Below are positions 1 through 32,843 of a stretch of 64,000 nt of DNA, in pieces (positions within the stretch are counted from its first letter, which is position 1; each line of letters begins with the position of its first letter). A model generated the notes under the pieces. The model had not been told where the DNA came from, did not search any database, and was given only the letters and a program-made list of their open reading frames with translations. This stretch comes from Chthoniobacteraceae bacterium (lineage in GTDB: Bacteria; Verrucomicrobiota; Verrucomicrobiia; Chthoniobacterales; Chthoniobacteraceae). A program made the position numbers and the translations under genes. Location: NCBI GenBank assembly GCA_044221035.1, contig JBGAPU010000014.1:7598-71597 (forward strand). Direction: 5' to 3'.

Positions 1-274
1 CTCCATGAAGTCCTCCTTCGTGAGGTGCTTCAGCAGGTCGGTTCGGAGTTTCATCGGGCATAGGTTAATCCCCGCGGGGTTCGATGCAACCCCCGCAGCA
101 AAGCGCCCCGCCCGCCCCGTGGCGAGCGCATTCGCCATCCCCAGCCCTTCGCGTCACCTCGCCTTGGTTAATGCCGGACGCGGCGTGCGGGTGGCTCACC
201 AGTTCGGATTCGGAAACACGCAGCACCCCGGCCCATGCTTGGGAAGGCCTGCATCCTGCTAAATCCCTCCCGCC

Positions 275-1069
275 ATGGCACGCACCTACGGAAAACCTTC
301 GGAATATCTTTTGAAAGAGGCATCGGACAAGAGCATGCGGATTGTGCTCGGCGGGTTTCTCGCCGTCTTCGCCCTCGGCCTCGCCGTCGGCGGACTGATG
401 CACGCGGCGGAAGTCCATTACGCGCAGATTTCCGCCAGCGTCGTCTTCGCCTGCATCGTCACGGCTCTGGTGTTCTTCTGGTTCAGGCGCCGCGCCCTCG
501 CGTGGGAAAAGGAGCGCCAGAGCTTCCGCAAGGGCGCCCGCGGCGAGGCCGTCGTCGCAGACATCCTCGCGAGGCTCAGCGACAGCTACTTCGTCATCCA
601 CAACCTCCCCACCTCGAACGGCGCCTACGGCGACTACGACCATGTCGTCATCGGGCCCACCGGCATCTTTGTCATCGAGACCAAGGACTGGCGCGGCCAC
701 GTCACCACCGATGGCCACGGCGAACTCCTCCGCAACGGATACCCGACCGAGCGGCCCTTGGTGCGGAAGTTCGTCTCCCGCGTCATGCACCTCCGTGAGC
801 ACGTCCGCGAAGTCACTGGCTGCGAGCACTTCTTTCAGGCCGTCTTCGTCTTCACCTCCGCGCTGCTCAAGGCCGGGAAGGGCGACACGGGAAAGGCCCT
901 CTGCATCTCCGAGGAAAAGCTCTTCGACCTCATCGAGGAGGCAAAGCCCGCCAAGCGCATCCCCGGCACGGACACCCGGAGGATCGCCAAGGCCCTTCAC
1001 GATTTCGCCGTGAAGAATGGAAAGGCCCCGCACCAGCCCGCGGCCACACCCGCACCGGCGGCGGTGTGA
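275..1069 (+). CDS. Membrane-anchored NERD (nuclease-related domain) protein
   Basis: 264-aa ORF. Two N-terminal hydrophobic helices (GGFLAVFALGLAVGGL; VVFACIVTALVFFWF) are followed by a NERD-type core, 'GEAVVADILARL..YFVIHNLP..DYDHVVIGPTGIFVIETKDWRG'. Confidence 0.8.
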   Translation: MARTYGKPSEYLLKEASDKSMRIVLGGFLAVFALGLAVGGLMHAAEVHYAQISASVVFACIVTALVFFWFRRRALAWEKERQSFRKGARGEAVVADILARLSDSYFVIHNLPTSNGAYGDYDHVVIGPTGIFVIETKDWRGHVTTDGHGELLRNGYPTERPLVRKFVSRVMHLREHVREVTGCEHFFQAVFVFTSALLKAGKGDTGKALCISEEKLFDLIEEAKPAKRIPGTDTRRIAKALHDFAVKNGKAPHQPAATPAPAAV

Positions 1070-1070
1070 C

Positions 1071-1742
1071 TCACTGCAAAGCGGATCGCCCGCTTGTTGA
1101 AGTCACGGAGACCGGAAGGCAAATCTCCGGGGCGAGTTTCTGCAACAGGCTGAGCGCTTCGGCATACGTGCGCCTGTCGGCGATGTGTTCAACGTGGTCA
1201 TTCGCATCCAAGCCGTAGATTCCGAAGAACGGCTCGTCGTAGTTCTCGTCGAAAGGGTCATCGCTCGCTGTGAACGCTTCTGTGAAATCATCGCCGAGTA
1301 AGTTGCGCATAGTCTGGATGCGAAACGCCCTGAATGGGGAACCCTGCACGGGATTCGGCGCGATGACATCGATAGGCACGCGCAGACCTGCGGAAGACCT
1401 CACCGGCAGCCCCATGCGAAGCGCCACTCGCAGGCAGTGATTGTCGCCAAAGACGGCAAGGTTCTCGAAGCCCACCACCTCCACGCACGCACCACCAAAT
1501 CTGTCCTCCATCAGGTAAGGCCAGACCTCATCGAGCTCATCGAACGCAATAGTGTCTGAGGCCCATGTTTCAAAGCGCGTCGCCACCCGCATGACGACGC
1601 GCATGAATTCATCGCCGCCGTTGTAGCGCTCGGTGAGGTTCACGCGTTCAGAGCCTTTGGCCGCTTTCATGCACTCCTGCCAAAGTGACAAAGCGCATCC
1701 AAAAACTGCGGCGGGGTCGGGCTGTTCAGCTTCATCACTCAT
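1071..1742 (-). CDS. Hypothetical acidic protein (223 aa), no recognised domain
   Basis: Clean ATG-started ORF. Its stop lies 1 nt from the NERD stop (convergent). Its start lies 38 bp from the divergent HNH gene. Composition is non-repetitive and protein-like, unlike the antisense shadow ORFs. Confidence 0.6.
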   Translation of the reverse strand: MSDEAEQPDPAAVFGCALSLWQECMKAAKGSERVNLTERYNGGDEFMRVVMRVATRFETWASDTIAFDELDEVWPYLMEDRFGGACVEVVGFENLAVFGDNHCLRVALRMGLPVRSSAGLRVPIDVIAPNPVQGSPFRAFRIQTMRNLLGDDFTEAFTASDDPFDENYDEPFFGIYGLDANDHVEHIADRRTYAEALSLLQKLAPEICLPVSVTSTSGRSALQ

Positions 1743-1780
1743 CGCTTTTCCACAAAGCGGCAGGCCGGTAGTTTCCTGGA

Positions 1781-2581
1781 ATGTCTCTCCGGAAAAAATG
1801 GACCCGCGACGAACTGCTCGTCGTTCTCAACCTCTACCACAAGCTCACGTTCGGGAGGCTCCATGCACGGAACCCCGTCATCATGGCGCTCGCTGAAAAG
1901 CTCGGGCGTGGAGCGAACAGCGTGGCAATGAAGCTCTGCAACCTCGCTTCGCTCGATCCCGCGCTGAAGCTCCGGGGCATCAAAGGACTGACCGGCGCGA
2001 GCGCCTTGGACCGCGCCGCATGGGAGGAGTTTCACGCAGACCTCGAAGAATCCGTTCCCGCGAGCGAGGAAGCGTTCCGGGCGCTGTTCGAGGCGGACGC
2101 AAACGCTGAAGTGGAAGTATTGCCCAAAGCGGGTGTGCGTGTGCGCAAGACTCCTCCGCGAGGACCGACGGAAACAGTCGCCAGCGTGAAGCTGCGCAGA
2201 GGGCAGGAATATTTCCGTGACGCGGTGCTGAATAACTTCGGCGGGCGCTGCGGCGTCACCGGTCTCGCTGTTCGCGAATTGCTGATCGCGTCGCACATCC
2301 TCCCGTGGGGGTTGCACCCCGCGGAACGCCTCAATATCCGCAACGGGCTTTGTCTCTCACGCCTTCACGATGCCGCGTTCGATCGCGGCCTAATCGCCTT
2401 CGATGATGGCTTGAGGCTGCTGCTCTCCCCCCAACTCAAGATCGAGATTTCCCAGCGAACAGTGGCCGAAAATTTCGGCGCGTATGCGGGAACACCGCTG
2501 CAAGTGCCGGATGACGCCGTGCTGCCCGACATCGAATTTCTTGCGGCGCATCGCACCCAAGTCTTCCGCAAGCGGTCATAG
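1781..2581 (+). CDS. HNH endonuclease (HNH_2 / putative restriction endonuclease type)
   Basis: C-terminal 'RCGVTGLAVRELLIASHILPW...NGLCLSRLHDAAFDRGLIAFDD' is the His-Me finger pattern of the stand-alone HNH_2 family. The N-terminus 'WTRDELLVVLNLY' is typical of this family. Confidence 0.8.
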   Translation: MSLRKKWTRDELLVVLNLYHKLTFGRLHARNPVIMALAEKLGRGANSVAMKLCNLASLDPALKLRGIKGLTGASALDRAAWEEFHADLEESVPASEEAFRALFEADANAEVEVLPKAGVRVRKTPPRGPTETVASVKLRRGQEYFRDAVLNNFGGRCGVTGLAVRELLIASHILPWGLHPAERLNIRNGLCLSRLHDAAFDRGLIAFDDGLRLLLSPQLKIEISQRTVAENFGAYAGTPLQVPDDAVLPDIEFLAAHRTQVFRKRS

Positions 2582-2968
2582 CACCTCGAAAACGAATTCG
2601 CTCGGCTTCTCGGTGAGCAGCCTCGCCGATTTCACCCGGACTCTGCCAAGGTAAGTGAATGGCGAGTGGTGCCGCTTGCGATGGAACACGTGAATCTCGT
2701 CTCCTCTTTCGTCCGCCATGGCGATGCGTGAATCGGTGCGATGCCCATTCTCTCCCTCCCAATGCAGCGTCGCGCCGCTCAGCATGTCTTCATAGGCCGT
2801 GAGCGATTCCTGTTTCTCCTCAGTGACGAATAGCACGATGTAATTCTGGCCGGCTGGAGTGAACACGCCGCGGGCGATTGCGTGAAAGTCCCGGTATCCC
2901 CACAGCGTGGCGAGGTGGTTGCGGTCCCAGATGGAGTCCTTCGGGATGGAGTCGAATTGAACTGGCAT
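2576..2968 (-). CDS. Stand-alone DUF3427-like domain protein
   Basis: 130 aa with the pattern 'LFVTEEK...YEDML..ATLHWEGE...IHVFHRK...PFTYLGRVRV...KPSEFVFEV'. This matches the DUF3427 layout usually fused to SF2 helicase/nuclease proteins. Its 3' end overlaps the HNH gene stop by 6 nt (TCATAG). Confidence 0.6.
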   Translation of the reverse strand: MPVQFDSIPKDSIWDRNHLATLWGYRDFHAIARGVFTPAGQNYIVLFVTEEKQESLTAYEDMLSGATLHWEGENGHRTDSRIAMADERGDEIHVFHRKRHHSPFTYLGRVRVKSARLLTEKPSEFVFEVL

Positions 2969-3087
2969 GGGTTCCAGAAAGGTCTGAACGAGGAGCCATG
3001 TTCAAGCGCGCTCATAGCGCCGATGAGTCAAGTCGTGCCGCGCCCCGGCGCGCTTGTGTTCCGGGGGGTGGCGGGTATGCTCCCGCC

Positions 3088-3315
3088 ATGTCCGTGACGC
3101 TCACCGCCAACCGCGAACTTCCCATCCCCGAGGAGGTGTGCTCGCAACTGGGCCTGAGGGCAGGGGATGAGTTTGAAGTGCTCACCGCGGCGGACCGCCT
3201 GATCGCGATTCGGAAAGGTGCGGCGAAGCCGGGGGATTTCCGCGCGCTGATGGAGCGGCTCGCCTACGTGCGGGCGGGGCGCCGGTTCAGCCGCGACGAG
3301 GCGAATGAGCGCTGA
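3088..3315 (+). CDS. AbrB/SpoVT-family antitoxin (VapB-like)
   Basis: 75-aa product 'MSVTLTANRELPIPEEVCSQLGLRAGDEFEV' is a SpoVT-AbrB swapped-hairpin motif. Internal ATG at 3088 of the longer ORF 2878-3315. Overlaps the downstream PIN gene by 11 nt. Confidence 0.75.
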   Translation: MSVTLTANRELPIPEEVCSQLGLRAGDEFEVLTAADRLIAIRKGAAKPGDFRALMERLAYVRAGRRFSRDEANER

Positions 3316-3751
3316 GGCGTTTCTGGACACGAACGTCCTCGTCTATGGCTTCGATCCCTCGGAGCCGGAGAAGCAGCGCCGCGCGCTCGGCCTCGTGGAG
3401 TCGGCGCTGCGCGAGGGCAGCGCGGTCATCAGCACACAGGTGGTGCAGGAGTTCCTGAACTTGGCGACGCGCAAGTTTGCGACCGCGTTTTCGGCTGCAG
3501 ACCTGCGCGCGTATCTCGATGCGGTGCTGTGGCCGCTCTGCCGGGTTTTTCCAGACGCCGCGCTCTACGGGCTCGCGCTGGAGGTGCGCGAAGAGACGGG
3601 CTTCAGCTTCTACGACTCGCTGATCGTGGCGGGCGCGCTGGGCGCGGGATGCCGCAGGCTCTATTCGGAAGACATGCAGCATGGCCACACAGTGCGCGGT
3701 CTGGTGATCGAGAATCCCTTTGGCAGCGGCGTGCCGCCGGTCCGGCCCTGA
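3305..3751 (+). CDS. vapC: PIN-domain ribonuclease toxin (VapC-like)
   Basis: N-terminal 'FLDTNVLVY' acidic motif, internal 'QVVQEF' and 'FYDSLIVA' PIN signatures. Translationally coupled to the AbrB antitoxin. Confidence 0.85.
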   Translation: MSAEAFLDTNVLVYGFDPSEPEKQRRALGLVESALREGSAVISTQVVQEFLNLATRKFATAFSAADLRAYLDAVLWPLCRVFPDAALYGLALEVREETGFSFYDSLIVAGALGAGCRRLYSEDMQHGHTVRGLVIENPFGSGVPPVRP

Positions 3752-3844
3752 ACGTCGTCGAGGGCTGATGCCCCCTGCGCGGCGGTGCGGCAACCGGCAC
3801 CATCCGGTCCGATTCGGCGGGTGGGCTGGGCTGGGCCAGCCGCA

Positions 3845-3861
3845 ACTTTTTTCAAAAAAGT
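3845..3861. repeat. Perfect AT-rich 17-bp palindrome ACTTTTTTCAAAAAAGT, preceded by a GC-rich dyad (candidate bidirectional terminator or operator)
   Basis: Read directly. It is the only strongly AT-rich palindrome in this part of a GC-rich window. It lies about 95 bp after the vapC stop and after 'GCTGGGCCAGC'. Confidence 0.4.
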
Positions 3862-4106
3862 GAGGCTGAAAGTGTAACAAAACGGCGCGGGAGGCGTATC
3901 AGCGGGTGAACACCGAAATCTTCACCCCAGCCTCCCCATGAAGCAGACCCCAGCCGCGCTCCGGCGCATTTCCATCATTCCCACCCAGCGGCAGCCCGGC
4001 GATCCCGGCGCCGGGCCGGTGCCCGTGCCCGCATGGGTGCGCGGCACCGCCAGCCTTCACCGCGCGGGCGGCGCGCACTGAGCGAGACCACCGGGAGGAC
4101 GCAGCG

Positions 4107-4598
4107 ATGAGCACGAGGAAATCGGGCAGTGGGTCGGGAGAGCCGGCGGTGCCGGCGTGCGGGGAGAGCGAGGACGGGAACCGGCGCGGAAAGGCGACCG
4201 GGTGTGCGCGGGGACTCGCGAACGGCGAGTTCCGGAGCGCGAAGCGGCCCGTGAAGGGCCGGGGCAACGCGAACGCGCGCGGGCCGCTGGGGAAGGTCGC
4301 GGCCGACGGCACCTCCGAGCTTGGAAAATACTTCGGGCTCGTGGTGCGCATGGAGATGGAGTGGCAGGGCTACAACCAGCGCGGGCTGGCGAATCTCGCG
4401 ATGATGCGGGAAAGCACGCTGAGCCTCCTGCTGAATGCGAAGCACACCGTGTGGATGAGCACCGCGGAGAAAGTGGCCGACGCCCTCGGCTTCATGCTGG
4501 AGGAACTGCTGACGCGCGCGCGCGATTTCATCGAGACGGTGAAGGCCGAGGCCATCCGCGCGGCGGTCCTCGATGCGCTGAAAGCTTCTTTTCTTTGA
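4107..4598 (+). CDS. XRE-family helix-turn-helix protein with Arg/Gly-rich N-terminal extension
   Basis: 'LGKYFGLVVRMEMEWQGYNQRGLANLAMMRESTLSLLLNAKHTVWMSTAEKVADALGF' fits the Cro/C1 HTH pattern. The start codon is uncertain because the N-terminal 70 aa are low complexity. Confidence 0.55.
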   Translation: MSTRKSGSGSGEPAVPACGESEDGNRRGKATGCARGLANGEFRSAKRPVKGRGNANARGPLGKVAADGTSELGKYFGLVVRMEMEWQGYNQRGLANLAMMRESTLSLLLNAKHTVWMSTAEKVADALGFMLEELLTRARDFIETVKAEAIRAAVLDALKASFL

Positions 4599-4761
4599 AG
4601 CACACCTGACCCCGCGGCCCGCTTCAATCGCGCCCGTGCCACAGAACGAACCACTTTTCTGGGATGACGAAAGCGACCCCGCCCTCGTGTGGGATTCGCC
4701 GCTCCCGCTCGAGTGGGACGGCCTGCGGCCGGACAACAACAACAACCAACAGAACAACACC

Positions 4762-5265
4762 ATGCCAGACGACAACCGAATCAGCGCCACCGTGTCCCCG
4801 ACCGACAAGGCGGCAATCATCACCAAGCTCACGGAGATCAAGGCCCTGCTGCCCTTCCTCCTGAACCTGACGAAGGACGAGCGCATCCAGCTCCCGAAGC
4901 TCGGCGGCGCGTCGCTGCTCTTTGACGAGCAGTGCGCGAGCTACATGGCCAGCGCGCCCACCCTCGTGCCGCCCTATGTGGACCCGGCCGAGGTCGGCAA
5001 GGACCGCGCCCTGCGGCTCGTGATCGCGGACATCCTCCGCGAGGTGAAGAAGCTCTGCGAGCAGCTCGACGACACGCTGCTGCTCATCGGCAGCGAGATC
5101 TGGATGGCGGACCTGTCCTTTTACCAGATGGTGCGCCAGGCCGCCCGCCGCAACGTGGTGGGTGCGGACACCGTGTATGACGACCTGAAGGAACGTTTCC
5201 CCGGCCTGAATGGCGACCCGGAGGAGGAGCCGGAGGATCCCGAGAATCCGAACCCCACGCCGTAA
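4762..5265 (+). CDS. Conserved-looking hypothetical protein (167 aa)
   Basis: ATG at 4762 is preceded by an unusual A/C-rich leader (ACAACAACAACAACCAACAGAACAACACC). The product is helical and non-repetitive, with an acidic Pro-rich tail. The ORF track alternative start is GTG at 4636. Confidence 0.55.
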   Translation: MPDDNRISATVSPTDKAAIITKLTEIKALLPFLLNLTKDERIQLPKLGGASLLFDEQCASYMASAPTLVPPYVDPAEVGKDRALRLVIADILREVKKLCEQLDDTLLLIGSEIWMADLSFYQMVRQAARRNVVGADTVYDDLKERFPGLNGDPEEEPEDPENPNPTP

Positions 5266-5475
5266 CACCGGCATCCGAGCATGAAAGGGATGAACACCCA
5301 CCTCGCTGGGCACTGTGGGGCAGATGCCGTGAATCGCCGAGGCGGACGGGAAACCGGTGCCGCCGGGGTTCCGGGATGGCCCTGAATGCGCCGAACCTGC
5401 GGTATCCGACCAGTTTGGCGGGTAAAATGCGGGTCCAAGCCTCGATATCGCACAAAACCATGGCGAAACGGCACC

Positions 5476-5800
5476 TTTCACCCCGCGAGGGGGGACCCCT
5501 AGGGGTGGTCATCACCACCCCTGAGGGTGGTCATCGGCACCCCTCGGGGTGGTCGGTGGGGACCCTCCGGGGTGGTGATCGCCACCCCCGGAGCCCCCGA
5601 TCGGGACCCCTTGGGGTGGTTCCCGGGTGCCCTCGGGGTGGTGATCGGCAGCCTCGGGGGTGGTCGGTGGGCACCCTTTGGGGTGGTCATCGGGGGCCTC
5701 AGGGGTGGCTGCCGGGACCCCTCGGGGTGGCGATCGGGTGCCCGAGGGGTGGTCAACGGCAGCCCTCGGGGTGGCGATCACCACCCCGGAGGCTGCCGAT
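5476..5800. repeat. Degenerate 22-bp tandem array (about 13-15 units) with phased GGGGTGG cores
   Basis: GGGGTGG or a near-variant recurs at 5502, 5524, 5546, 5569, 5613, 5635, 5657, 5680, 5702, 5724, 5746 and 5768, giving spacings of 22-23 bp. Each unit carries a CCC-N3-GGGG mini-dyad. The region is open in all six frames, and the period is not a multiple of 3. Confidence 0.85.
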
Positions 5801-6130
5801 GGGGAGCCCGAAGGCTCCGGCCCGGATGCCCGCGACGCGCTCCCGGAATCCCCGGGAGGCGGCGACGACATGCCCGGCGGGTGGCCGCGGGAAGCCTGAA
5901 AGGCAGTCTTTGCCTGCCCAAACGGTGCCTCACCGAACCAGCCACGCCGCATCGTCGAACTTCACGACCCCGTCTTTCACCGCCGCGCCCACCTCCATCC
6001 CTCATCCTCGCTGCCATGAAAGACCGAGTCCCGCGACTCACGCCACCCCTGTTCCCGCTCCAGAGCCGCTCTCCATCACCCACTTTGCACACTCAAACGA
6101 ACGAAACCGCTCATATAAACGCCTGCGCCA

Positions 6131-6172
6131 AATCCGCAATCCGCAATCCCAAATCCACAATCCCAAAACTCC
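6131..6172. repeat. Six tandem heptads (AATCCGC-type) abutting a start codon
   Basis: The six heptads AATCCGC AATCCGC AATCCCA AATCCAC AATCCCA AAACTCC are followed directly by the ATG at 6173. Confidence 0.8.
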
Positions 6173-6607
6173 ATGCCCTTCGACCCCAATCTCCCCGCCT
6201 CCGGCTCCCGTATCCAATCCCAAGTCGTCCGCGACCAGCTTAATGGACTGAAGTCGCTCATAGACAATGTGCCCGGCATCACCGCCGTGGTGATTGACAG
6301 CGTGACCACGCTGCCGCCCGGCGAGGCGGCCACCGTGGGTGCCAGCGTCGCCGCCGGTGTGCTGCACCTCAGCTTTGCCATCCCGCAGGGCACCGCCGGG
6401 ACGAATGGAGCCGATGGTTCCCAAGGCCCGCAGGGCCCGATGGGTGCCGTGACTCCGCAGAACCTCGACGACGCCATCGTGACCACGGCCCGGAACCCGA
6501 GCGCCATCGGGCCTTTCGCTGGCACGTTCAGCGACCCGCCGACGCAGGCGGAGCTGGTGGCGTTTGCGGCGCACGTGGAGACGCTGCGCGCGGCGCTGGT
6601 GAGGTGA
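6173..6607 (+). CDS. Small collagen-like (Gly-X-Y) protein, tail-fibre-like architecture
   Basis: 144 aa. 'GTAGTNGADGSQGPQGPMG' gives six G-X-Y triplets (nt 6389-6445), flanked by non-repetitive N- and C-terminal regions. Confidence 0.55.
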   Translation: MPFDPNLPASGSRIQSQVVRDQLNGLKSLIDNVPGITAVVIDSVTTLPPGEAATVGASVAAGVLHLSFAIPQGTAGTNGADGSQGPQGPMGAVTPQNLDDAIVTTARNPSAIGPFAGTFSDPPTQAELVAFAAHVETLRAALVR

Positions 6608-6640
6608 GGGAGATGACGAATGGGCGGGGTGGAGTGGCCG

Positions 6641-6696
6641 GTGCTCAGTGCTCAGTGCTCAGTGCTCGGTGCTCGGTGCTCGGTCCTCGGTGCCCA
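6641..6696. repeat. Eight tandem heptads (GTGCTCA/GTGCTCG type)
   Basis: GTGCTCA x3, GTGCTCG x3, GTCCTCG, GTGCCCA. Lies in the convergent intergenic region between the stops at 6607 (+) and 6766 (-). Flanked by GAATGAC-type heptads at 6612-6622 and 6705-6720. Confidence 0.85.
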
Positions 6697-6765
6697 TCCA
6701 TCGGGAATGACGGGATGACGGGGGGAGCGTTTGGGGTCCGGAAGGCACCGTCTGCCGGGGATGAA

Positions 6766-9700
6766 TCAGTCCGGCTTTGCCCAGCGCTGGAGCACCTGAA
6801 GGTAGGCGTCGTGCTTTTCCGCGGGCGTGGCCTTTGCGATGGCGCGCAGCTTTTCGCGCAGGGCGAGCCATTCGTCGGCTTCGATGGTCTCCATGCCGCC
6901 GCTGGGGCCGATCTTCATCTGCGCCATGTAGCGGAGGAAGTCGGGGAACCAGTCCGGCGGGAGGCCGGAGCCGGGAGGGAGGATTTTCCAGATGCGCGCG
7001 CGCACATCGGGGCCGGCGACCACGACGGAGCTGCCATCCGGACTGAAGCGCGCACTGAGGGCCACCGGGTCGCGGCCCGTGCCGGCGGGCACGCCTCTTC
7101 CCGGTCCCATGGTGCCCAGCAGGCGCTCGCCGGCGATGTCCCACAGCGCGGCGGTGCTGCCCCAGTTGACGGTCGCCAGCCGCCGGCCGTCGGGGCTGAA
7201 ATGGATGCGGTGCTGCTGCTCGGAGTAGGTCTGGTCGAAGAAATTCGTGAGCGGCTTGCCGGTGGTGGCGTCCCAGAGGCGCGCATTGCGGTCGATGGAG
7301 GCGGTGGCGACGAGCCTGCCGTCGGGGCTGAACTCCGCCTCGTGCACGGGGCGCTGGTGGCCGGTGAGGCTGAGGAGGGGCCTGCCGGTGGCGGCATCCC
7401 AGATGCGCGCGGTGTTGTCGTCGGAGGCGGTGACGATGCGGGTGCCGTCGGGGCTGAAGGAGGCGCGGCTCACGTTGGACTCGTGGCCGGTGAGGAGGAG
7501 CAGCGGCTTTCCGGTGGCGGCATCCCACACGCGGGCGATGGGCTCGCGGGAGGCGGTGGCAATGCGCCTGCCATCCGGGCTGAACTCCGCGGAGGCGACT
7601 TCATCCGGGGAGCCGGAGAGGACGGTGAGCATCTCCCCGGTGGCGGCGTCCCACACGCGGGCGGTCTTGTCCTTCGAGGCGGTGACGAGGCGCCCGCCAT
7701 CGCGGCTGAACTGGGCGGTGAAGACTTCGTCGGTGTGGCCCTCGAGGTTCACGAGGACTTCGGCGCTGGCGGCATCCCAGACCAGCGCGGTGCGCGCCCG
7801 CCCGGCGGTGACGATGCGGGTGCCGTCCGGGCTGAACTGCGCATCCGTGGCGTAGGCGTCGCCGGGGAAGTTGTTGAAGGCGGCGGGCTCCGCGGGTTTC
7901 AGCGCGGTCCAGATCCGGGCGGTGCGATCCTGCGAGGCGGTGACGACGCGCGAGCCGTCCGGGCTGAACTCGGCGGCGAGCACCCAGCCGAGGTGGCCGC
8001 CGAGCGTGACGAGCTCCTTCCCCCGGGCCACATCCCAGATGCGCGCGGTGTTGTCCAGCGAGGCGGTGGCGAGCGAGCGGCCATCCGGGCTGAACTGGAC
8101 GCGGAAGATCGTGCTGCGGTGACCGCGGAGGATGGCGGTGGTCTTGCCCGTGGCCGCATTCCAGATGCGCGCCGTGTGGTCGCCCGAGACGGTGACGATG
8201 CGCCGGCCATCCGGGCTGAACCGTGCATCGAGCACCCAGTCTGGATGGCCGGCGAGGGTCATGAGCAGTTTCCCGCCCGCTGTCTCCCAGACGCGCGCCG
8301 TGTGGTCGAATGACGCGGTGACAATCCGGGCTCCATCGGGGCTGAAGCGTGCGATGAGTCCCTCCTTGTGCCCGGTGAGGGCGGCCATTTCGCGCCCGTC
8401 CGCGGCGTCCCACACCCGCGCGGTCTTGTCGTCGGATGCGGTGAGGAGGCGGGTGCCGTCCGGGCTGAAGGAGGCGTGGGAGAGTCTGTCGGTGTGGCCG
8501 GTGAGCGTGAAGAGGAGCTTGCCGCTGGCGGCGTCCCAGAGGCGCGCGGTTTTGTCCGCCGAGGCGGTGACCACTTTCGCCCCGTCGGGAGAGAACCTCG
8601 CGCTTTCGAGGGAATCCAGATGGCCGGAGAGAATGGCCTTGCTGGCGCCGGTGGCCGCATCCCACACGCGGGCCGTCTTGTCGCGCGCAGAGGTGACGAC
8701 GCGGGAGCCGTCGGGGCTGAACTCGGCGGAGGTGAGGGCATCGGTGTGGCCCTCCATTCGCACGAGGAGGGCGCCGGTCGCCGCGTCCCACACCTGCGCG
8801 GTCCGGCCGAAGAAGGTCACGATGCGGGCGCCATCGGCGCTGAACCGCACGCCCCACCACACCTCGCTGTCGCCGGGCTTTTCGAGTTTCGAGCGCGGCT
8901 CGCGCATGATGAGCGCCGGGTGCGGGTGGCACCAGCGGTTGAGGGCGAGGAAGGCCTTCTCCGCCGCGGCGGCGGAGCCCGGGGGATCGTATTCGCAGGA
9001 GCGCGCGAGATGCGCGAACGCCTCGCGGTCCCGCCACGCCTGCAGCTCCTCCTCGGCGGCGACGCGGTCGGAAAGCGCGGCCTCCGCCAGCATCCGCCGG
9101 GACTCCCCGTTTTTCCGCGCAATCTCCACGCGCGCAGCCTCGACCTTCTGAGTTTGGGAATTCGCCTCCGACTCGGCGCGCCGCGCGCGGAGCATCTGGA
9201 GCGTGCTCGCCGCGATGCCGCCGACGAGAAGGAGGAGGATGGTCGCGGCGGAGGCGAAGGCGAGGCGGTTGCGGCGGACGAGCTTGCGGAAGCGGTAGAG
9301 CGCGCTGGGCGGGCCGGCTTCCACGGGCTCGCTGGCGAGGTGGCGCGCGATGTCGGCGGCGAGTGCGGCGGCGCTGCCGTAGCGGCGCTCGCGGTCCTTT
9401 TCCAAGGCGCGGAGGGAAATCCAGTCGAGGTCGCCGCGGAGGGTGCGGGTGAGTTTGCCGGGCTCGGTGCCGCGCGTGGTCGCGGCGGTGCGGGTGATGT
9501 CGCCCGCATTGCCGACACGGCTGCTCGGGCGCGGGGCCTCGCTCTCGCGGATCATGCGGAGCATTTCATCGAAGGCGGCGCTGCGCAGCGTCTCCGTGCT
9601 GAGCGGGGTGTCGCCGGTGAGCAGCTCGTAGAGGATCACGCCGAGGGTGTAGATGTCGCTGCGGGTGTCGAGGTCCCCCTTGGCACCGGCCTGCTCGGGG

Positions 9701-10440
9701 CTCATGTAGCGCGGCGTGCCGATGAATGCGCCGGTCTGCGTGAGGGTGAGGCCCGCGCGGATGGCTTCGCTCTCGGTGCCGAGCGCCTTGGCGATGCCGA
9801 AGTCGATCACCTTCGGCACGGGCTTCCCGTCCACTTCGCTGACGAGGATGTTTCCCGGCTTCAAGTCGCGGTGGAGGATCGCCTTCTGGTGCGCGTGCTG
9901 CACGGCGTGGCAGACGGGGATGAAGAGTTCGAGCCGCTCGCGGATGGTGAGCTTGCGGGCGTCGGCGAACTTCGTGATCGGCTCGCCGCGGACCAGCTCC
10001 ATGACGAAGAAGGGGCGGCCATTCTCCGTGGTGCCCGCGTCGAGCACGCCGGCGATGTTCGGATGCTCCATGAGCGCGAGCGCCTGCCGCTCCGCCTCGA
10101 ACCGCGCGATGATCTCCGCGCTGTCCATGCCGGCCTTGATGAGCTTCAGCGCGACCTCGCGGCGAATGGGCTCGCTCTGCTCCGCGCGCCACACTGCGCC
10201 GAAGCCGCCCTCGCCGAGCTTCTCGATCAGCCGGTAGCGCCCCACGACCACGCCCGGCTGCTCCACGCCGCCCGCGGCCACGCGCGCCACGGTCCCTTCG
10301 GTGGGGAAATCCGCGGGGTTCTCCGCATTTGCCGCGAACATGCGCTGCATGGTCCCGTCACCCATCCGGTGCGTGGCGTCCTCCGGTTGCACGCCGCCCC
10401 CGTCGCCGTCACTCACCGGCTCGGTGGTCTCGTCAGACAT
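6766..10440 (-). CDS. Ser/Thr protein kinase with one TM helix and about 15 WD40 repeats
   Basis: Hanks kinase motifs are present: 'GEGGFGAVW', 'VALKLIK', 'HRDLKPGNIL', 'DFGIAK', 'GTPRYMSPEQ'. TM segment 'LAFASAATILLLLVGGIAAS'. Then about 15 units ending 'ARVWDAATG', 'ARIWDAATG' and similar. Confidence 0.9.
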   Translation of the reverse strand: MSDETTEPVSDGDGGGVQPEDATHRMGDGTMQRMFAANAENPADFPTEGTVARVAAGGVEQPGVVVGRYRLIEKLGEGGFGAVWRAEQSEPIRREVALKLIKAGMDSAEIIARFEAERQALALMEHPNIAGVLDAGTTENGRPFFVMELVRGEPITKFADARKLTIRERLELFIPVCHAVQHAHQKAILHRDLKPGNILVSEVDGKPVPKVIDFGIAKALGTESEAIRAGLTLTQTGAFIGTPRYMSPEQAGAKGDLDTRSDIYTLGVILYELLTGDTPLSTETLRSAAFDEMLRMIRESEAPRPSSRVGNAGDITRTAATTRGTEPGKLTRTLRGDLDWISLRALEKDRERRYGSAAALAADIARHLASEPVEAGPPSALYRFRKLVRRNRLAFASAATILLLLVGGIAASTLQMLRARRAESEANSQTQKVEAARVEIARKNGESRRMLAEAALSDRVAAEEELQAWRDREAFAHLARSCEYDPPGSAAAAEKAFLALNRWCHPHPALIMREPRSKLEKPGDSEVWWGVRFSADGARIVTFFGRTAQVWDAATGALLVRMEGHTDALTSAEFSPDGSRVVTSARDKTARVWDAATGASKAILSGHLDSLESARFSPDGAKVVTASADKTARLWDAASGKLLFTLTGHTDRLSHASFSPDGTRLLTASDDKTARVWDAADGREMAALTGHKEGLIARFSPDGARIVTASFDHTARVWETAGGKLLMTLAGHPDWVLDARFSPDGRRIVTVSGDHTARIWNAATGKTTAILRGHRSTIFRVQFSPDGRSLATASLDNTARIWDVARGKELVTLGGHLGWVLAAEFSPDGSRVVTASQDRTARIWTALKPAEPAAFNNFPGDAYATDAQFSPDGTRIVTAGRARTALVWDAASAEVLVNLEGHTDEVFTAQFSRDGGRLVTASKDKTARVWDAATGEMLTVLSGSPDEVASAEFSPDGRRIATASREPIARVWDAATGKPLLLLTGHESNVSRASFSPDGTRIVTASDDNTARIWDAATGRPLLSLTGHQRPVHEAEFSPDGRLVATASIDRNARLWDATTGKPLTNFFDQTYSEQQHRIHFSPDGRRLATVNWGSTAALWDIAGERLLGTMGPGRGVPAGTGRDPVALSARFSPDGSSVVVAGPDVRARIWKILPPGSGLPPDWFPDFLRYMAQMKIGPSGGMETIEADEWLALREKLRAIAKATPAEKHDAYLQVLQRWAKPD

Positions 10441-10551
10441 GGCGCTGGGACTCCATCGGCGCGGATGCTGGGGCGCGGAAGGGTGCGAGGCAAGCAGGGT
10501 GTCGTGACCTGTCGCGGGCTCCGGCGTGCCGGCTTCGGCGGCCGTGCGGGG

Positions 10552-13209
10552 TCACTTTTCCGAAAGCTCGGCGACGAACTCGCGTGCGTCCCTGGTGGCG
10601 GGGTGGTTTTCGCCGAGGACCTTCTGCCGGCCGCTGAGCACGCGGCGCGCGAGGGTGAGCGCCTCCGCGCGCTTGCCCTGCCGGGCGAGGGTGAGGGCGA
10701 GGTTGTAGCATTCCGTGAGGACCTGCGGGTGGTCGGGGCCGAGGCTGCGCTCGGCTTCCGCGAGCACGGCGCGGTGCTCGGCCTCCGCCTCGGGGAGCTT
10801 TTTCTGCCGCTCGAGGCAGTTGGCGAGGTTCATGCGGGCGCCGAGCGTGGTGCGGGCTGCCGGGCCGAGGACGCGCTCCATGACCGGAATGAGCGCGCGG
10901 AACTCCTTCTCGGCCTCGGCGTGGCTGCCGCTGTCGGTGAGCAGTCCGGCGAGATCCTGCCGGCTGGCGAGGGTGTCGGGATGCTCGGGGCCGATGAGGC
11001 GGGTCTCGGCCTCGATGACGGTCTGGAGTTCACCGACTGCCTCGGCGGGGCGGTCCTGGGCGGCGAGCGAAACGGCGAGGCCCTTGCGGCTGTTGAGGGT
11101 GTCGAGGTGGTCGGGGCCGAGAACCCGCAGGCGGATTTCCAGTCCGGCGCGGTGCTCGGCCTCGGCTTCGGAGTGCCTGCCGAGCCTGTGGAGGGCCAGC
11201 GCGAGGTTGCCCCGGCACATGAGGGTGTCGGGATGCTCCGGGCCGCGGGCCTTCACCCAGAGCGGGAGCATCGCGCGGAACTCCGCCTCGGCCTCGGCGA
11301 GGCGGTTGCGGTCGAGGAGCAGCAGCGCGAGGCTGTTGCGGGTGGCGAGGGTGTCCGGCGCGTCCGGGCCGAAGACGCGGGAGCGCAGATCGAGGTTGAG
11401 GCTGTGCTCGGCCTCCGCCTCCGCGTATTTGTGCTGGGCGCGCAGCGCGATGGCGAGGTTGTTCCTCGCGGAGAGGGTGTCGGGGTGCTCCGACCCCTGG
11501 GTGCGGGTGCGGATTTCCAGGAGCGCGCGGTGCTCGGCCTCGGCCTCGGCGAGCTTGCTCTGCGCGGCGAGGACGAGCGCGCGGTTGTTGCGGCTGCCCA
11601 GCGTCTCGGGGTGCTCGGGGCCTTGAAACTGCGTGCTGAGTTCAAGCGCCCGCAGAAGCTGCGGCAGGGCGCTGTCGGCGAGGCCGAGCCGGGAGTAGCT
11701 CACGCCGATGGTGTCGCGGATCGCCGCCTCGACGAGCGGCTGGTCGCGGAAGCGCCCGCCGATTTTCTCCGCGGCGCGGTCGAGGGCCTCGCGCACGGTG
11801 AGGTCCGGATTGGGTGCGTCGCCGCTGTCGGCCTGGGCGCCGGGGTCCACCTGGGCGAGGACGTCGCGGCGGAGAAATTCGCTCACCGCCTTCGCCACGG
11901 CCGCCTCGTTGTCCGCGCGCCTCTTCTCCGCCGTCACGTGCGTGAGCCGCAGCGTCGCGAGATCCTCGGCACGTCGCGCGCGGAGCATCTGGAGCGTGCT
12001 CACTGCGATGCCGCCGACGAGAAGGAGGAGGATGGCCGCGGCGGAGGCGAAGGCGAGGCGGTTGCGGCGGACGAGCTTGCGGAATCGGTAGAGGGCGCTG
12101 GGCGGGCCGGCTTCGACGGGCTCGCTGGCCAGGTGCCGGGCGATGTCGGCAGCAAGCGCGGCGGCGCTGCCGTAGCGGCGTTCGCGGTCCTTCTCCAAGG
12201 CGCGAAGGGCGATCCAGTCGAGGTCGCCGCGCAGGGTGCGGGTGAGCTTGCCGGGCTCGGTGCCGCGTGTGGTGGCGGCGGTGCGGGTGTCGTCGCTAGC
12301 GGTGCCGACCCGGCTGCTCGGGCGCGGGGCCTCGCTCTCGCGGATCATTCGGAGCATTTCATCGAACGCGGCGCTGCGGAGGGTCTCGGCGGAGAGCGGG
12401 GTGTCGCCGGTGAGCAACTCGTAGAGGATCACGCCGAGGGTGTAGATGTCGCTGCGTGTGTCGAGGTCCGCCTTCGCGCCCGCCTGCTCGGGGCTCATGT
12501 AGCGCGGGGTGCCGATGAAGGTGCCGGTGTGGGTGAGATGGAGGCTTTCGCGCAGGGCGTCGTCGCTCGCGCCGCCGGTGCCACCGGTGCCCAGCGCCTT
12601 GGCGATGCCGAAGTCGATCACCTTCGGCACTGGGTGGCCGTCCACCTCGGCGATGAGGATGTTTCCCGGTTTCAGGTCGCGGTGGAGGATCGCCTTCTGG
12701 TGCGCGTGCTGCACGGCGTGGCAGACGGGGATGAAGAGTTCGAGCCGCTCGCGAATGGTGAGCTTGCGCGCGTCGGCGAACTTGGTGATCGGCTCGCCGC
12801 GCACCAGCTCCATGACGAAGAACGGACGGCCATTCTCCGTGGTGCCCGCGTCGAGCACGCCGGCGATGTTCGGATGCTCCATGAGCGCGAGCGCCTGCCG
12901 CTCGGCCTCGAAGCGCGCGATGATCTCCGCGCTGTCCATGCCGGCCTTGATCAATTTCAGCGCGACCTCGCGTTTGATCGGCTCGCTCTGCTCCGCACGC
13001 CACACCGCGCCGAAGCCGCCCTCGCCGAGCTTTTCAATCAGCCGGTAGCGGCCAATGGATTCTCCGCTCTGTTCCCCCGCCTGCTCTCCCGGCGCCGCAT
13101 CCGCCGCGAGCATCCGTTGCAACGTGCCGTCGCCGATCCGGTGCGTCGCGTCCCCCGGCTGTCCGCCGCTCGGTGCGTCCGGATTTACCGGGTCCGTCTC
13201 GTCATGCAT
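10552..13209 (-). CDS. Ser/Thr protein kinase with one TM helix and TPR (kinesin-light-chain-like) repeats
   Basis: The kinase + TM module is nearly identical to the upstream paralogue. The C-terminus holds about 9 repeats of the form 'AEAEAEHRA.L..R.R..G.EHPDTL..R.NLA'. Start set at ATG 13209 (MHDETDPV) by analogy with MSDETTEPV of the paralogue. The ORF track start is 13389. Confidence 0.9.
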   Translation of the reverse strand: MHDETDPVNPDAPSGGQPGDATHRIGDGTLQRMLAADAAPGEQAGEQSGESIGRYRLIEKLGEGGFGAVWRAEQSEPIKREVALKLIKAGMDSAEIIARFEAERQALALMEHPNIAGVLDAGTTENGRPFFVMELVRGEPITKFADARKLTIRERLELFIPVCHAVQHAHQKAILHRDLKPGNILIAEVDGHPVPKVIDFGIAKALGTGGTGGASDDALRESLHLTHTGTFIGTPRYMSPEQAGAKADLDTRSDIYTLGVILYELLTGDTPLSAETLRSAAFDEMLRMIRESEAPRPSSRVGTASDDTRTAATTRGTEPGKLTRTLRGDLDWIALRALEKDRERRYGSAAALAADIARHLASEPVEAGPPSALYRFRKLVRRNRLAFASAAAILLLLVGGIAVSTLQMLRARRAEDLATLRLTHVTAEKRRADNEAAVAKAVSEFLRRDVLAQVDPGAQADSGDAPNPDLTVREALDRAAEKIGGRFRDQPLVEAAIRDTIGVSYSRLGLADSALPQLLRALELSTQFQGPEHPETLGSRNNRALVLAAQSKLAEAEAEHRALLEIRTRTQGSEHPDTLSARNNLAIALRAQHKYAEAEAEHSLNLDLRSRVFGPDAPDTLATRNSLALLLLDRNRLAEAEAEFRAMLPLWVKARGPEHPDTLMCRGNLALALHRLGRHSEAEAEHRAGLEIRLRVLGPDHLDTLNSRKGLAVSLAAQDRPAEAVGELQTVIEAETRLIGPEHPDTLASRQDLAGLLTDSGSHAEAEKEFRALIPVMERVLGPAARTTLGARMNLANCLERQKKLPEAEAEHRAVLAEAERSLGPDHPQVLTECYNLALTLARQGKRAEALTLARRVLSGRQKVLGENHPATRDAREFVAELSEK

Positions 13210-13304
13210 GGCGTGGGGAGTCCATGGCCGGGAATGCTGGGGCGCCGGGAAGCAGGAGGCAAGCGTGCGGCTGCGGCGGGAGCTTCGACGGCGGCTGGAA
13301 CTGC

Positions 13305-13670
13305 CTAGCTGCCGCCCTGTCCCCGGTGGCACATCACATTGATCACCGTGCCGCTGGGATCGGCCACGAAGAAGCGGCGGACGCCCCACGGTTCATCGGT
13401 GAGCGGGTAAACGATGGGGACGCCGAGCTGGACGGCGCGGGCGTGGGCGGCGTCCACATCGTCCACCTCGATGGAGATGTCCGGGTTTGCCGCGGGCGCG
13501 GGGGCCGGCTGCATGAGGGTGATTTGCGCCGTGGGGTTGCCCGGGGAGACGAACGTGAGAATCCAGCCCATGTCCATCGCGAGGTTCATCCCGAGGAATT
13601 CGCCGTAGAACCGGCGGCTCTCGTCCATCTGCGCGGAGGTGATGTCGGGAACGATGCGTTTGATGTTCAT
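13305..13670 (-). CDS. VOC / glyoxalase-bleomycin resistance family protein
   Basis: 121 aa from ATG 13670, 'MNIKRIVPDITSAQMDESRRFYGEFLGMNL...WGVRRFFVADPSGTVINV', which is the VOC beta-alpha-beta-beta-beta pattern. Confidence 0.8.
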   Translation of the reverse strand: MNIKRIVPDITSAQMDESRRFYGEFLGMNLAMDMGWILTFVSPGNPTAQITLMQPAPAPAANPDISIEVDDVDAAHARAVQLGVPIVYPLTDEPWGVRRFFVADPSGTVINVMCHRGQGGS

Positions 13671-13981
13671 TTTTTGGCGGGATGTTTGGTGGGATCGCAG
13701 CGCGCGGCGGGCGCGGGAGTGTGCTCGGTGTAGCCGATGGGGGAGTGGTGTCGAGGAAGGGCTTGAGGGCTGCTGCCCGCGGTCGCGGCGCTCTTTTCCC
13801 ACTCGTGCCGGAAGAGCAGCCAGTAGAGCGGGCCGAGCAGCGGGACGGAGATGACGACAAGTGTCCAGACGGCTTTGCGTCGCCAGACCGTGCGCGAGAA
13901 CAGAACGGCGGCGAGCACGGCTGCGTGAAACGCGATGGCGGCCCGGAGCAGAAAGGGGAGGGATGCGGGGTCGAATGGCAT
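13667..13981 (-). CDS. Small membrane protein with PLDc_N-like motif
   Basis: Two hydrophobic helices and 'VPLLGPLYWLLF'. Its stop overlaps the VOC gene start by 4 nt. Confidence 0.55.
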   Translation of the reverse strand: MPFDPASLPFLLRAAIAFHAAVLAAVLFSRTVWRRKAVWTLVVISVPLLGPLYWLLFRHEWEKSAATAGSSPQALPRHHSPIGYTEHTPAPAARCDPTKHPAKK

Positions 13982-14012
13982 CGGTCGCAGGGGCTTGCGC
14001 CCGGCGCCGGGC

Positions 14013-32704: not shown

Positions 32705-32843
32705 TCTTCCAAGGGGAGCCTCGCGTCTTCCAAGGGGAGCCTCGCGTCTTCCAAGGGGAGCCTCGCGTCTTCCAAGGGGAGCCTCGCGTCTTCCAAGGGG
32801 AGCCTCGCGTCTTCCAAGGGGAGCCTCGCGTCTTCCAAGGGGA
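32705..32843. repeat. Perfect 21-bp tandem repeat, 6.6 copies (TCTTCCAAGGGGAGCCTCGCG)
   Basis: Six identical units from 32705 to 32830, plus a 13-nt partial seventh. It starts at the first base after the DUF1501 TAA stop. Confidence 0.95.

Follow-up and report, generated by a model that had tools for sequence, protein, structure and literature searches.

The window analysed here is a stretch of 64,000 nucleotides (nt) from a Chthoniobacteraceae bacterium (assembly GCA_044221035.1, contig JBGAPU010000014.1, positions 7,598 to 71,597). At positions 5476-5800 it carries an array of short tandem repeats, and directly upstream of the array lies a gene for a 209-residue protein of an uncharacterised family, called p209 here. 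A gene of this family and an array of 21/22-bp period on its 3' flank very probably form a conserved two-part module, and gene and array are inherited as a pair in at least six bacterial phyla. An earlier note on this DNA, which had described the array as iteron-like, left the 209-residue gene out of consideration. Below, G000 denotes the genome of the window (assembly of 6.06 Mb, 65% GC), C with a number its contigs, and L with a number homologous loci from elsewhere. The parts of the module in the window are as follows.

4636-5265, + strand: gene of p209, 209 amino acids, uncharacterised family, directly upstream of the array
5266-5475, no strand: spacer from the p209 stop codon to the array, ending in the conserved array entry GAGGGGGGACCCC (5487-5499)
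5476-5800, no strand: array of 13 units of 22/23 bp with the logo GGA-S-CC-YY-N-GGGGTGG-Y-N-A-T, and with homologous arrays in G000 and four congeners

Structure of the array

The array is built on the core GGGGTGG, which recurs at a spacing of 22-23 bp between 5502 and 5768, in agreement with the earlier note. Eleven exact cores lie on the + strand, and a further one, AGGGTGG at 5524, has a single mismatch. The steps from core to core are 22, 22, 23, 44, 22, 22, 23, 22, 22, 22 and 22 bp; the 44-bp step is accounted for by a degenerate unit near 5591, which brings the total to 13 units. The 64-kb window has 24 matches to GGGGTGG, compared with 7.7 +/- 2.6 in shuffled sequences, and 14 of the 24 (both strands counted) sit in the 325-bp array stretch. 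Tandem Repeats Finder (TRF), the program suggested earlier for the unit statistics, returns a period of 22, 11.5 copies and 64% matches, with superperiods of 44 and 111. A dyad, CC(C)-N2-3-GGGG, is present in every unit as had been described, and the non-coding gap that was put at about 900 bp measures 907 bp between the flanking genes (5266-6172). The extent 5476-5800 holds for the array proper but is slightly too short, degenerate units trailing to about 5870.

The logo derived from 134 units reads GGA-S-CC-YY-N-GGGGTGG-Y-N-A. All homologous arrays, including those at C83, L013-L017 and L020, open with the same entry, GAGGGGGGACCCC-T-W-GGGGTGG. The sole inverted pair flanking the window array is 12 nt long with a 92% match (5365-5376 with 5841-5852), and this pair is not seen in the alignment of paralogous arrays. 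A scan found no intrinsic terminator between p209 and the window array, and a promoter scan found no sigma-70-like site in 4000-6800.

The array is non-coding. A coding repeat is ruled out for it by the period of 22, by the stops in five of the six frames and by the flat codon-position GC (0.64/0.67/0.69) of the spanning open reading frame (ORF), 5376-6251, which contrasts with the gene-like values of the neighbouring p209 gene (0.67/0.38/0.90). The alignment of paralogous arrays shows indels that are not multiples of 3, whole 22-bp units among them. The earlier conclusion that this is not a protein repeat is thus upheld, but the accompanying statement that all six frames are open does not hold: stops are absent from a single frame in 5476-5800, and the other five carry 1-4 each. 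The G-quadruplex or i-motif structures that had been suggested are likewise not borne out. Four G3+ or C3+ tracts with loops of 1-7 nt do not occur on either strand, and matches appear only if the loops are relaxed to 12 nt.

Linkage of the gene and the array

A locus scan with one genome per species returned 37 loci with a p209 homologue, from Verrucomicrobiota, Planctomycetota (Schlesneria), Chloroflexota, Acidobacteriota, Bacteroidota and unclassified metagenome-assembled genomes. Enough downstream sequence is available for a set of 37 loci (34 from the one-per-species scan together with L020, L021 and L023), and in 31 of these the 1.5 kb that follow the p209 homologue have their strongest periodicity at 21, 22, 42, 43 or 44 bp. 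TRF finds 24 arrays of period 21/22 in 416 kb of p209 loci, and all 24 lie directly after the gene. The polarity is seen again in an independent metagenome sample, retrieved with a narrower p209 alignment, where TRF detects an array after the gene at 15 of 30 loci and before it at 1 of 27 (Fisher p = 8e-5). The chance expectation of such an array is about 1.3% per 800-bp stretch of this genome. The 50% found downstream is a lower bound, because TRF misses units less than about 70% alike. Arrays at module loci, which in Bacteroidota include L056 and L059, contain 5-25 units.

The order of the window, an XRE gene followed by p209, the array and a gene called p144, recurs in three congeners and several metagenome contigs. 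The neighbouring features of the window that take part in this order, together with two heptamer repeats, are listed here.

4107-4598, + strand: XRE-type helix-turn-helix (HTH) gene, 163 amino acids, with weak matches to HTH_26, HTH_31 and HTH_3 in Pfam and to PHROG transcriptional regulators
6131-6172, + strand: heptamer repeat of AATCCGC type, reaching the start codon of p144 (TRF periods 7 and 14)
6173-6607, + strand: p144, small collagen-like protein of 144 amino acids, with a weak match to Pfam Collagen
6639-6693, + strand: heptamer repeat (CGGTGCT) x 7.9, just past the p144 stop codon (TRF)

In Verrucomicrobiaceae the gene downstream of the array is p144, which is found there in L019-L040. 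An XRE gene upstream of the module is found in Verrucomicrobiaceae only; the HTH gene precedes p209 in about 10 Verrucomicrobial loci, not in every one, and is missing from L021 and from the distant loci. The loci of distant phyla consist of just the gene and the array, set among varied neighbours.

About 20 paralogues of p144 occur in G000, where tblastn hits more than 20 places, with 47-83% identity among the copies. The family is restricted to Verrucomicrobia, and none of its 155 homologues is named. Heptamer repeats of several sequence families flank the copies: runs like the AATCCGC type also precede other p144 paralogues, and the CGGTGCT heptamer recurs at many places in the genome. Heptamer repeats (ACAGTGG, AGTGACG, CATCACG) also lie within 4 kb of p209 homologues of distant phyla, in the flanks of L037, L050, L053 and L055. 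The island in the window further contains NERD, HNH and PIN-AbrB genes.

Unit sequence and its variation

The GGGGTGG unit family is found at only two more loci in G000, both of them decayed or orphan copies. One paralogous array, C83:1114-1400, adjoins a C-terminal fragment of a p144 paralogue. The other is split between C167:136-277 and C106:130-430, two halves of one locus that is syntenic with one array in the congener L014; the contig break beside these halves carries the start of an IS256-like transposase gene. Homologous arrays occur in 4 of 24 congeners, where orphan ones occupy syntenic chromosomal sites. The possibility that the same repeat is scattered genome-wide, which had been named earlier as a refuting outcome, is thus answered in two parts: the unit family is not scattered, but 76 arrays of the same period and unrelated sequence are present in the genome.

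Loci whose p209 is at least 63% identical have the GGGGTGG/CCACCCC unit in common. More distant p209 proteins are accompanied by unrelated units of equal length, for example CGAGTCTTTGAAACTCACCCG, TCCGTCTTTGAGTCGGAATGC and CCACTTCCGAAGTGGGGGGGT, usually with a short dyad. Among the p209 proteins of nine loci with the GGGGTGG unit, identity is 67-95% (median 75%), compared with 20-87% (median 32%) for the XRE domains. Because neutral DNA would be randomised at that degree of p209 divergence, the unit is under selection. Judged by these sequence comparisons, p209 and not the XRE gene is the gene that tracks the unit sequence.

The orientation of the units is not fixed. Units turned round with respect to the gene occur in L021, L027, L028 and L035, and L021 has four GGGGTGG units followed by eleven CCACCCC units. 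The number of units also varies. The L067 and L068 strains have flanks that are 99.7% identical and arrays that differ by about seven units, and in the Bacteroidia loci L064 and L065 the p209 homologue is identical and the arrays differ by one 42-bp unit. The homology of L064 and L065 breaks exactly at the distal end of the array, which is the boundary of a gene swap: the array is followed by NOV_C and D12 methyltransferase genes in L064 (7946-10097) and by DUF5946 in L065 (7988-8668). Modules are set among toxin-antitoxin and defence genes, namely type I restriction-modification, an SNF2/DUF1156 cluster, Fic-MazE, a TIR-like gene and a RecQ-like helicase. In a single case a Y1 (IS200/RAYT-like) transposase gene (L020, 3134-4129) lies 2 kb upstream of the p209 homologue.

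The p209 protein family

The family consists of proteins of 160-200 residues and spans at least six bacterial phyla. At its N-terminus p209 has an acidic 'TWD' leader, which is followed by a helical core (residues 43-190) and, at the end, by an acidic tail. The core is mildly acidic (18 K/R compared with 22 D/E), with conserved Arg/Lys residues. There are 242 close homologues at 55-90% identity, all unnamed, and a profile search with the family yields 4600 cluster representatives (50% identity) at E <= 0.001 and 2786 at E <= 1e-10. No match was found in Pfam, NCBIfam, PHROGs, PADLOC or the PDB sequence profiles. The AlphaFold (AF2) model, with a predicted local distance difference test score (pLDDT) of 81, is all-helical and has five helices, one of them about 55 residues long; Foldseek found no match for it in the PDB or BFVD.

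With tblastn, the window p209 matches nothing in PLSDB (72,556 plasmids) or INPHARED (50,697 phages), a p209 pattern scan of IMG/VR gave no relative, and the L050 homologue has no match in INPHARED. The Bacteroidia homologue of L056 matched one gene of a Gammaproteobacterial megaplasmid. G000 itself has a second, distant gene of the family at C51:47162-47614 (- strand; E = 3e-18), with a W-N/W-D leader; an IS1595-like transposase ORF directly follows it in place of an array.

Arrays of the same period in the genome

TRF was run on the whole genome and arrays of at least 4 copies were counted. G000 has 40 arrays of period 7, 12 of period 9, 41 of period 21, 18 of period 22, 7 of period 41 and 8 of period 42 bp, and almost no other periods besides 7, 9, 21/22 and 41/42. 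Periods 20-22 and 41-42 together make up the 76 arrays mentioned above, which have unrelated unit sequences and many of which are 90-100% homogeneous; examples are window 32705-32843, C13:6625-7065, C15:56866-57387 and C195:60268-60725. They are mostly intergenic. A contig end or a called ORF is touched by 25 of the 76, and the gaps occupied by the others are tandem in 31 cases, divergent in 12 and convergent in 8. Inverted repeats with arms of at least 5 bp are present in 33% of the units, compared with 16% of shuffled units.

Eighteen of the 76 arrays are near p144 paralogues or near a second family, whose members have 242 amino acids, a helical N-terminal part and an FN3-like end and start with MPxPxTWD. 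Each of the seven copies of this FN3-ended family has a 21-bp array on its 5' side, with 12-21 units and a different unit at each locus. The sister modules formed in this way, in the order array, FN3-ended gene, heptamer repeats, p144 paralogue (detailed for C26, C195 and C45), lie at the following positions.

C195:1-2200: FN3-ended sister module, with an XRE gene immediately before the 21-bp array
C26:65900-69000: FN3-ended sister module
C13:4800-7100: FN3-ended sister module
C45:9200-10925: FN3-ended sister module, with the array in frame with the ORF of the gene

Homology between p209 and the FN3-ended proteins was considered and rejected, as only the 39-residue N-terminal leader with its W-D motifs aligns (hhalign probability 92.8%). 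The p144 paralogues begin with a similar MP(F/Y)DP motif, which may be compared with the p209 leader (window 4636-4760). The leader common to p209 and the FN3-ended family, and similar in p144, may be a targeting or regulatory leader.

An IS256-like (Mutator-family) transposase gene, C46:55147-56370, is situated 81-84 bp from a 21-bp array, and the first codons of an IS256-like gene are found at a contig end (C106:1-54) about 80 bp before the C106 array. An IS256-like insertion sequence may insert next to 21-bp arrays, or the arrays may simply break the assembly.

Relatives of p209 were detected by profile search in 10 of 41 related genomes. The numbers of arrays in six of the related genomes are given below.

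G012: p209 present; 8 arrays of period 21/22 in 353 kb sampled
G014: p209 present; 2 arrays of period 21/22 in 400 kb sampled
G016: p209 present; 1 array of period 21/22 in 248 kb sampled
G015: p209 absent; 0 arrays of period 21/22 in 400 kb sampled
G030: p209 absent; 0 arrays of period 21/22 in 520 kb sampled
G018: p209 not detected; 2 old arrays (57-64% matches) of period 21/22 in 400 kb sampled

The p209-positive genomes thus have 11 arrays in 1.00 Mb and the p209-negative ones 2 in 1.32 Mb (one-sided binomial p = 0.003). This trend of 21/22-bp arrays with the presence of p209 is suggestive, the related genomes being few and G018 being an exception.

Gene callers place ORFs inside the arrays. 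Public gene calls within 21/42-bp arrays comprise ORFs of 36-145 amino acids at L061 (7474-7911), L065 (7526-7828) and L064 (7646-7756), and distant arrays of 21 nt often have one open frame, whose translation gives heptad-like peptides. These ORFs are probably false genes due to a period that is divisible by 3.

Proposed mechanism and alternatives

A distance of 21-22 bp corresponds to two turns of B-DNA. The cores of the window array are therefore about two helical turns apart, and the phased geometry has the look of a platform with multiple sites for protein binding, as had been proposed earlier. The inversions of the units, the folding energies, the terminators, the logo and the period point to action on double-stranded DNA rather than RNA. 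The mechanism put forward here is that the units are phased sites in double-stranded DNA, acting at the DNA level with p209 as their binder. It is held tentatively, with somewhat less than even confidence.

According to this mechanism the array would be the cis element of the module formed by a p209-family gene and its 3'-flanking array of 21/22-bp period. Each 22-bp unit would be a sequence-specific site composed of the core GGGGTGG and the conserved GGA..CC situated 9-13 bp upstream. As the spacing equals two helical turns, the sites would lie on one face of the DNA and a binder could line up on them side by side, forming a short nucleoprotein filament of about 13 units. The likeliest candidate for the binder would be p209 itself. 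The filament would occupy the gap that separates the p209 gene from the promoter region of the following gene, which in the window is the collagen-like p144. Its action would probably be local: it would silence or insulate the adjacent genes, which are often variable, or act as a roadblock for them. Slippage, by altering the number of units, might tune the strength of the filament.

Several observations weigh against this mechanism. Half of the metagenome loci have no array detected by TRF, and the Gammaproteobacterial megaplasmid homologue of p209 lacks an array. In distant phyla the array is not followed by a conserved gene, and control of a downstream gene can therefore not be what the module does everywhere. 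p209 is acidic overall, with an isoelectric point of 4.1-5.6 in 24 of 26 family members, and no DNA-binding fold is recognisable in it from the AF2 model and Foldseek. For these reasons direct binding of DNA by p209 is a guess, plausible but unproven. Unit positions -3 and -4 are occupied by pyrimidines only, which preserves G-U pairs on the G-rich strand, as an RNA or a single-stranded G-rich hairpin would do likewise. Finally, about 70 further arrays of the same period have unrelated units and no p209 gene nearby, and for that reason are not explained by one sequence-specific binder.

Binding of repeat RNA, in place of DNA, would require the array to be transcribed, from its own promoter or by read-through, with the 21/22-nt units being bound or processed by p209 in a ribonucleoprotein of the type III toxin-antitoxin kind or another. 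A gene with an adjacent tandem repeat and a strong intrinsic terminator between them (-18 to -26 kcal/mol, in 5 of 16 loci) recalls such systems (PMC3401426), as does the setting of the modules among PIN/AbrB, Fic/MazE, type I restriction-modification, TIR and NOV_C genes. Most arrays fold far better than shuffled sequence (z of -2 to -13), and at pairs 1-2 92 T:G mismatches compared with 8 others fit the tolerance of RNA for G-U pairs. However, the repeats follow the gene instead of preceding it. The orientation of the units flips relative to the gene, and the folding energy has no preference for the gene strand: in 12 of 27 arrays it is the sense strand that folds more stably. A local hairpin would be left with a 2-nt loop, and in most of the 134 units two of the six positions of its left arm cannot pair, from which it follows that sequence, and not a hairpin, is the conserved feature; as that analysis was anchored on exact GGGGTGG, the right arm was fixed and compensating changes could not be scored. 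Neither an endoribonuclease family nor a PADLOC model matches p209, which is acidic. The Rfam 15 scan of 4000-7500 (E up to 10) gave at best 27 bits, against a threshold of 70, for a plant microRNA (miRNA) model, and such sub-threshold matches are noise caused by the palindromic nature of the units. An RNA partner is on these grounds rather unlikely, while still to be reckoned with.

About equally improbable is an origin of the array as a minisatellite ruled by length. Here a lineage-specific process would measure length and ignore sequence, the array would have no site-specific function, and p209 would be either part of the process, with a preference for the flank of its own gene, or a passenger. 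The 76 arrays of G000 with their unrelated and often 90-100% homogeneous units would be explained in this way, as would their presence in tandem, divergent and convergent gaps alike and the variation of copy number between strains. Array density is 4-23 per Mb in the sampled p209-positive congeners, and of the p209-negative relatives two have no array and a third has two old ones, but this pattern rests on seven genomes, is confounded by their relatedness and includes G018, with arrays and no detectable p209. The GGGGTGG unit is kept where p209 is only 63-75% identical, which calls for selection on sequence. Moreover, with 64% matches the window array is an old, degenerate one and differs in this from the orphan arrays, which are young.

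A bolder extension, which is doubtful and offered as speculation, holds that the intergenic arrays of period 21/22 (and 41/42) bp in some genomes of Verrucomicrobiota, Bacteroidota and further phyla have their missing trans-acting partner in the p209 family. It is no less speculative that p209 binds, stabilises or generates repeats of two helical turns regardless of their sequence. The 3' flank of its own gene would then be its oldest and preferred substrate, genomes carrying p209 would gain dozens of arrays, and genomes losing p209 would lose them.

That the array is an operator of the XRE protein (4107-4598), dimers of which would bind the dyads cooperatively and control p144, is highly unlikely. 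The earlier note had pointed to this protein as a possible partner, and the CCC-N2-3-GGGG dyad of the units, the position of the XRE gene upstream of p209 in about 10 Verrucomicrobial loci and its place immediately before the 21-bp array of the C195 sister module would suit it. However, the gene is missing from L021 and from all distant loci with gene and array, and loci with one unit sequence have XRE domains that share only about 32% identity.

That the array belongs to an integrated plasmid or integrative and conjugative element, either as a replication origin of iteron type, which had been proposed earlier, or as a partition centromere, can be put aside with hardly any reservation. Such a role would suit the tandem 22-bp repeats, a typical feature of both iterons and parC-type centromeres (PMC5016525), and the position of the array in a variable island with toxin-antitoxin genes. 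However, among the ORFs of 1-14000 Pfam finds neither Rep nor ParA/ParM/TubZ, relaxase or integrase genes, and it finds no partition nucleoside triphosphatase (NTPase) family (ParA, ParM, TubZ) in the window locus or the related loci examined, an AT-rich unwinding element is missing with a GC content of 0.62-0.73 everywhere within 600 bp of the array, the window p209 is without a plasmid or phage relative in PLSDB, INPHARED or IMG/VR, and the orphan homologous arrays occupy syntenic chromosomal sites.

Comparison with known systems

No description of the p209 gene-array pair was found in Pfam, NCBIfam, PADLOC or the searchable literature, nor was a published explanation found for fixed-period 21/22-bp arrays of arbitrary sequence such as the 76 in G000. 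The combination of a helical family, a 3' array of conserved period, a lineage-specific unit, a distribution across numerous phyla and the presence elsewhere in the genome of dozens of further arrays with this period is without a described counterpart. p209 is the first candidate for a partner gene of 21/22-bp repeat arrays. What was a descriptive puzzle about repeats becomes testable at the level of protein-DNA binding, of the effect on neighbouring genes and of repeat stability, and, as the modules are found in variable, defence-rich regions, they may bear on the organisation or regulation of such islands.

Two other repeat systems were considered and rejected. The array is not a CRISPR array, as its units abut head to tail and their variable part is about 6-8 nt. 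The VIPR system has 9-16 YNNGG repeats of 5 nt beside a gene of RAMP fold and produces a tandem-repeat guide RNA, vrRNA (bioRxiv 10.64898/2026.04.26.720920); the period here is 22, not 5, and p209 is helical.

The minisatellite repeats of Porphyromonas gingivalis, BrickBuilt (23-nt) and MITE464/PgRS (41-nt), are miniature inverted-repeat transposable elements (MITEs) of unknown function (PMC4596501). The arrays described here resemble them in being intergenic, imperfect repeats of about 22 or 41 nt, with a copy number that varies between strains and predicted long stem-loops (PMC4596501). BrickBuilt has one common unit, a leader and a tail with terminal inverted repeats, and no known partner gene (PMC4596501). 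The unit family of the window, in contrast, is present at only three loci, has a conserved protein gene attached and lacks convincing terminal inverted repeats.

Type III toxin-antitoxin systems (ToxIN, CptIN, TenpIN) have 2-6 repeats of 34-45 nt upstream of the gene of a basic endoribonuclease and on the same strand (PMC3401426). They have in common with the p209 module a gene coupled to an array, often with a terminator between them, a setting among defence genes and a lineage-specific repeat (PMC3401426). In the p209 module, however, the units are of 21/22 bp, number 5-25, lie downstream and are invertible, and the protein is acidic and unrelated. Membership in this class was rejected on the downstream position of the array, on the inversion of units at several loci and on the lack of a match to ToxN/AbiQ, CptN or TenpN in Pfam and PADLOC.

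In its form the p209 module is akin to iterons and to parC/parS-type centromeres, such as the parC of R1 and pSK41 with ParR, the parS of pSM19035 with omega, and sopC of F, where cooperative binding to the repeats leads to a wrapped filament and both direct and inverted units can be used (PMC5016525). The p209 module differs from these in having neither a Rep initiator nor a partition NTPase, and p209 is neither a ribbon-helix-helix nor a ParB-like protein. Its array is chromosomal, is situated 3' of the gene and not at a promoter, and has 13 or more units; moreover, the same period recurs at 76 unrelated loci in G000. Like iterons and parC, it consists of short DNA repeats, in tandem and phased on one helical face, beside the gene of what is here a candidate binding protein.

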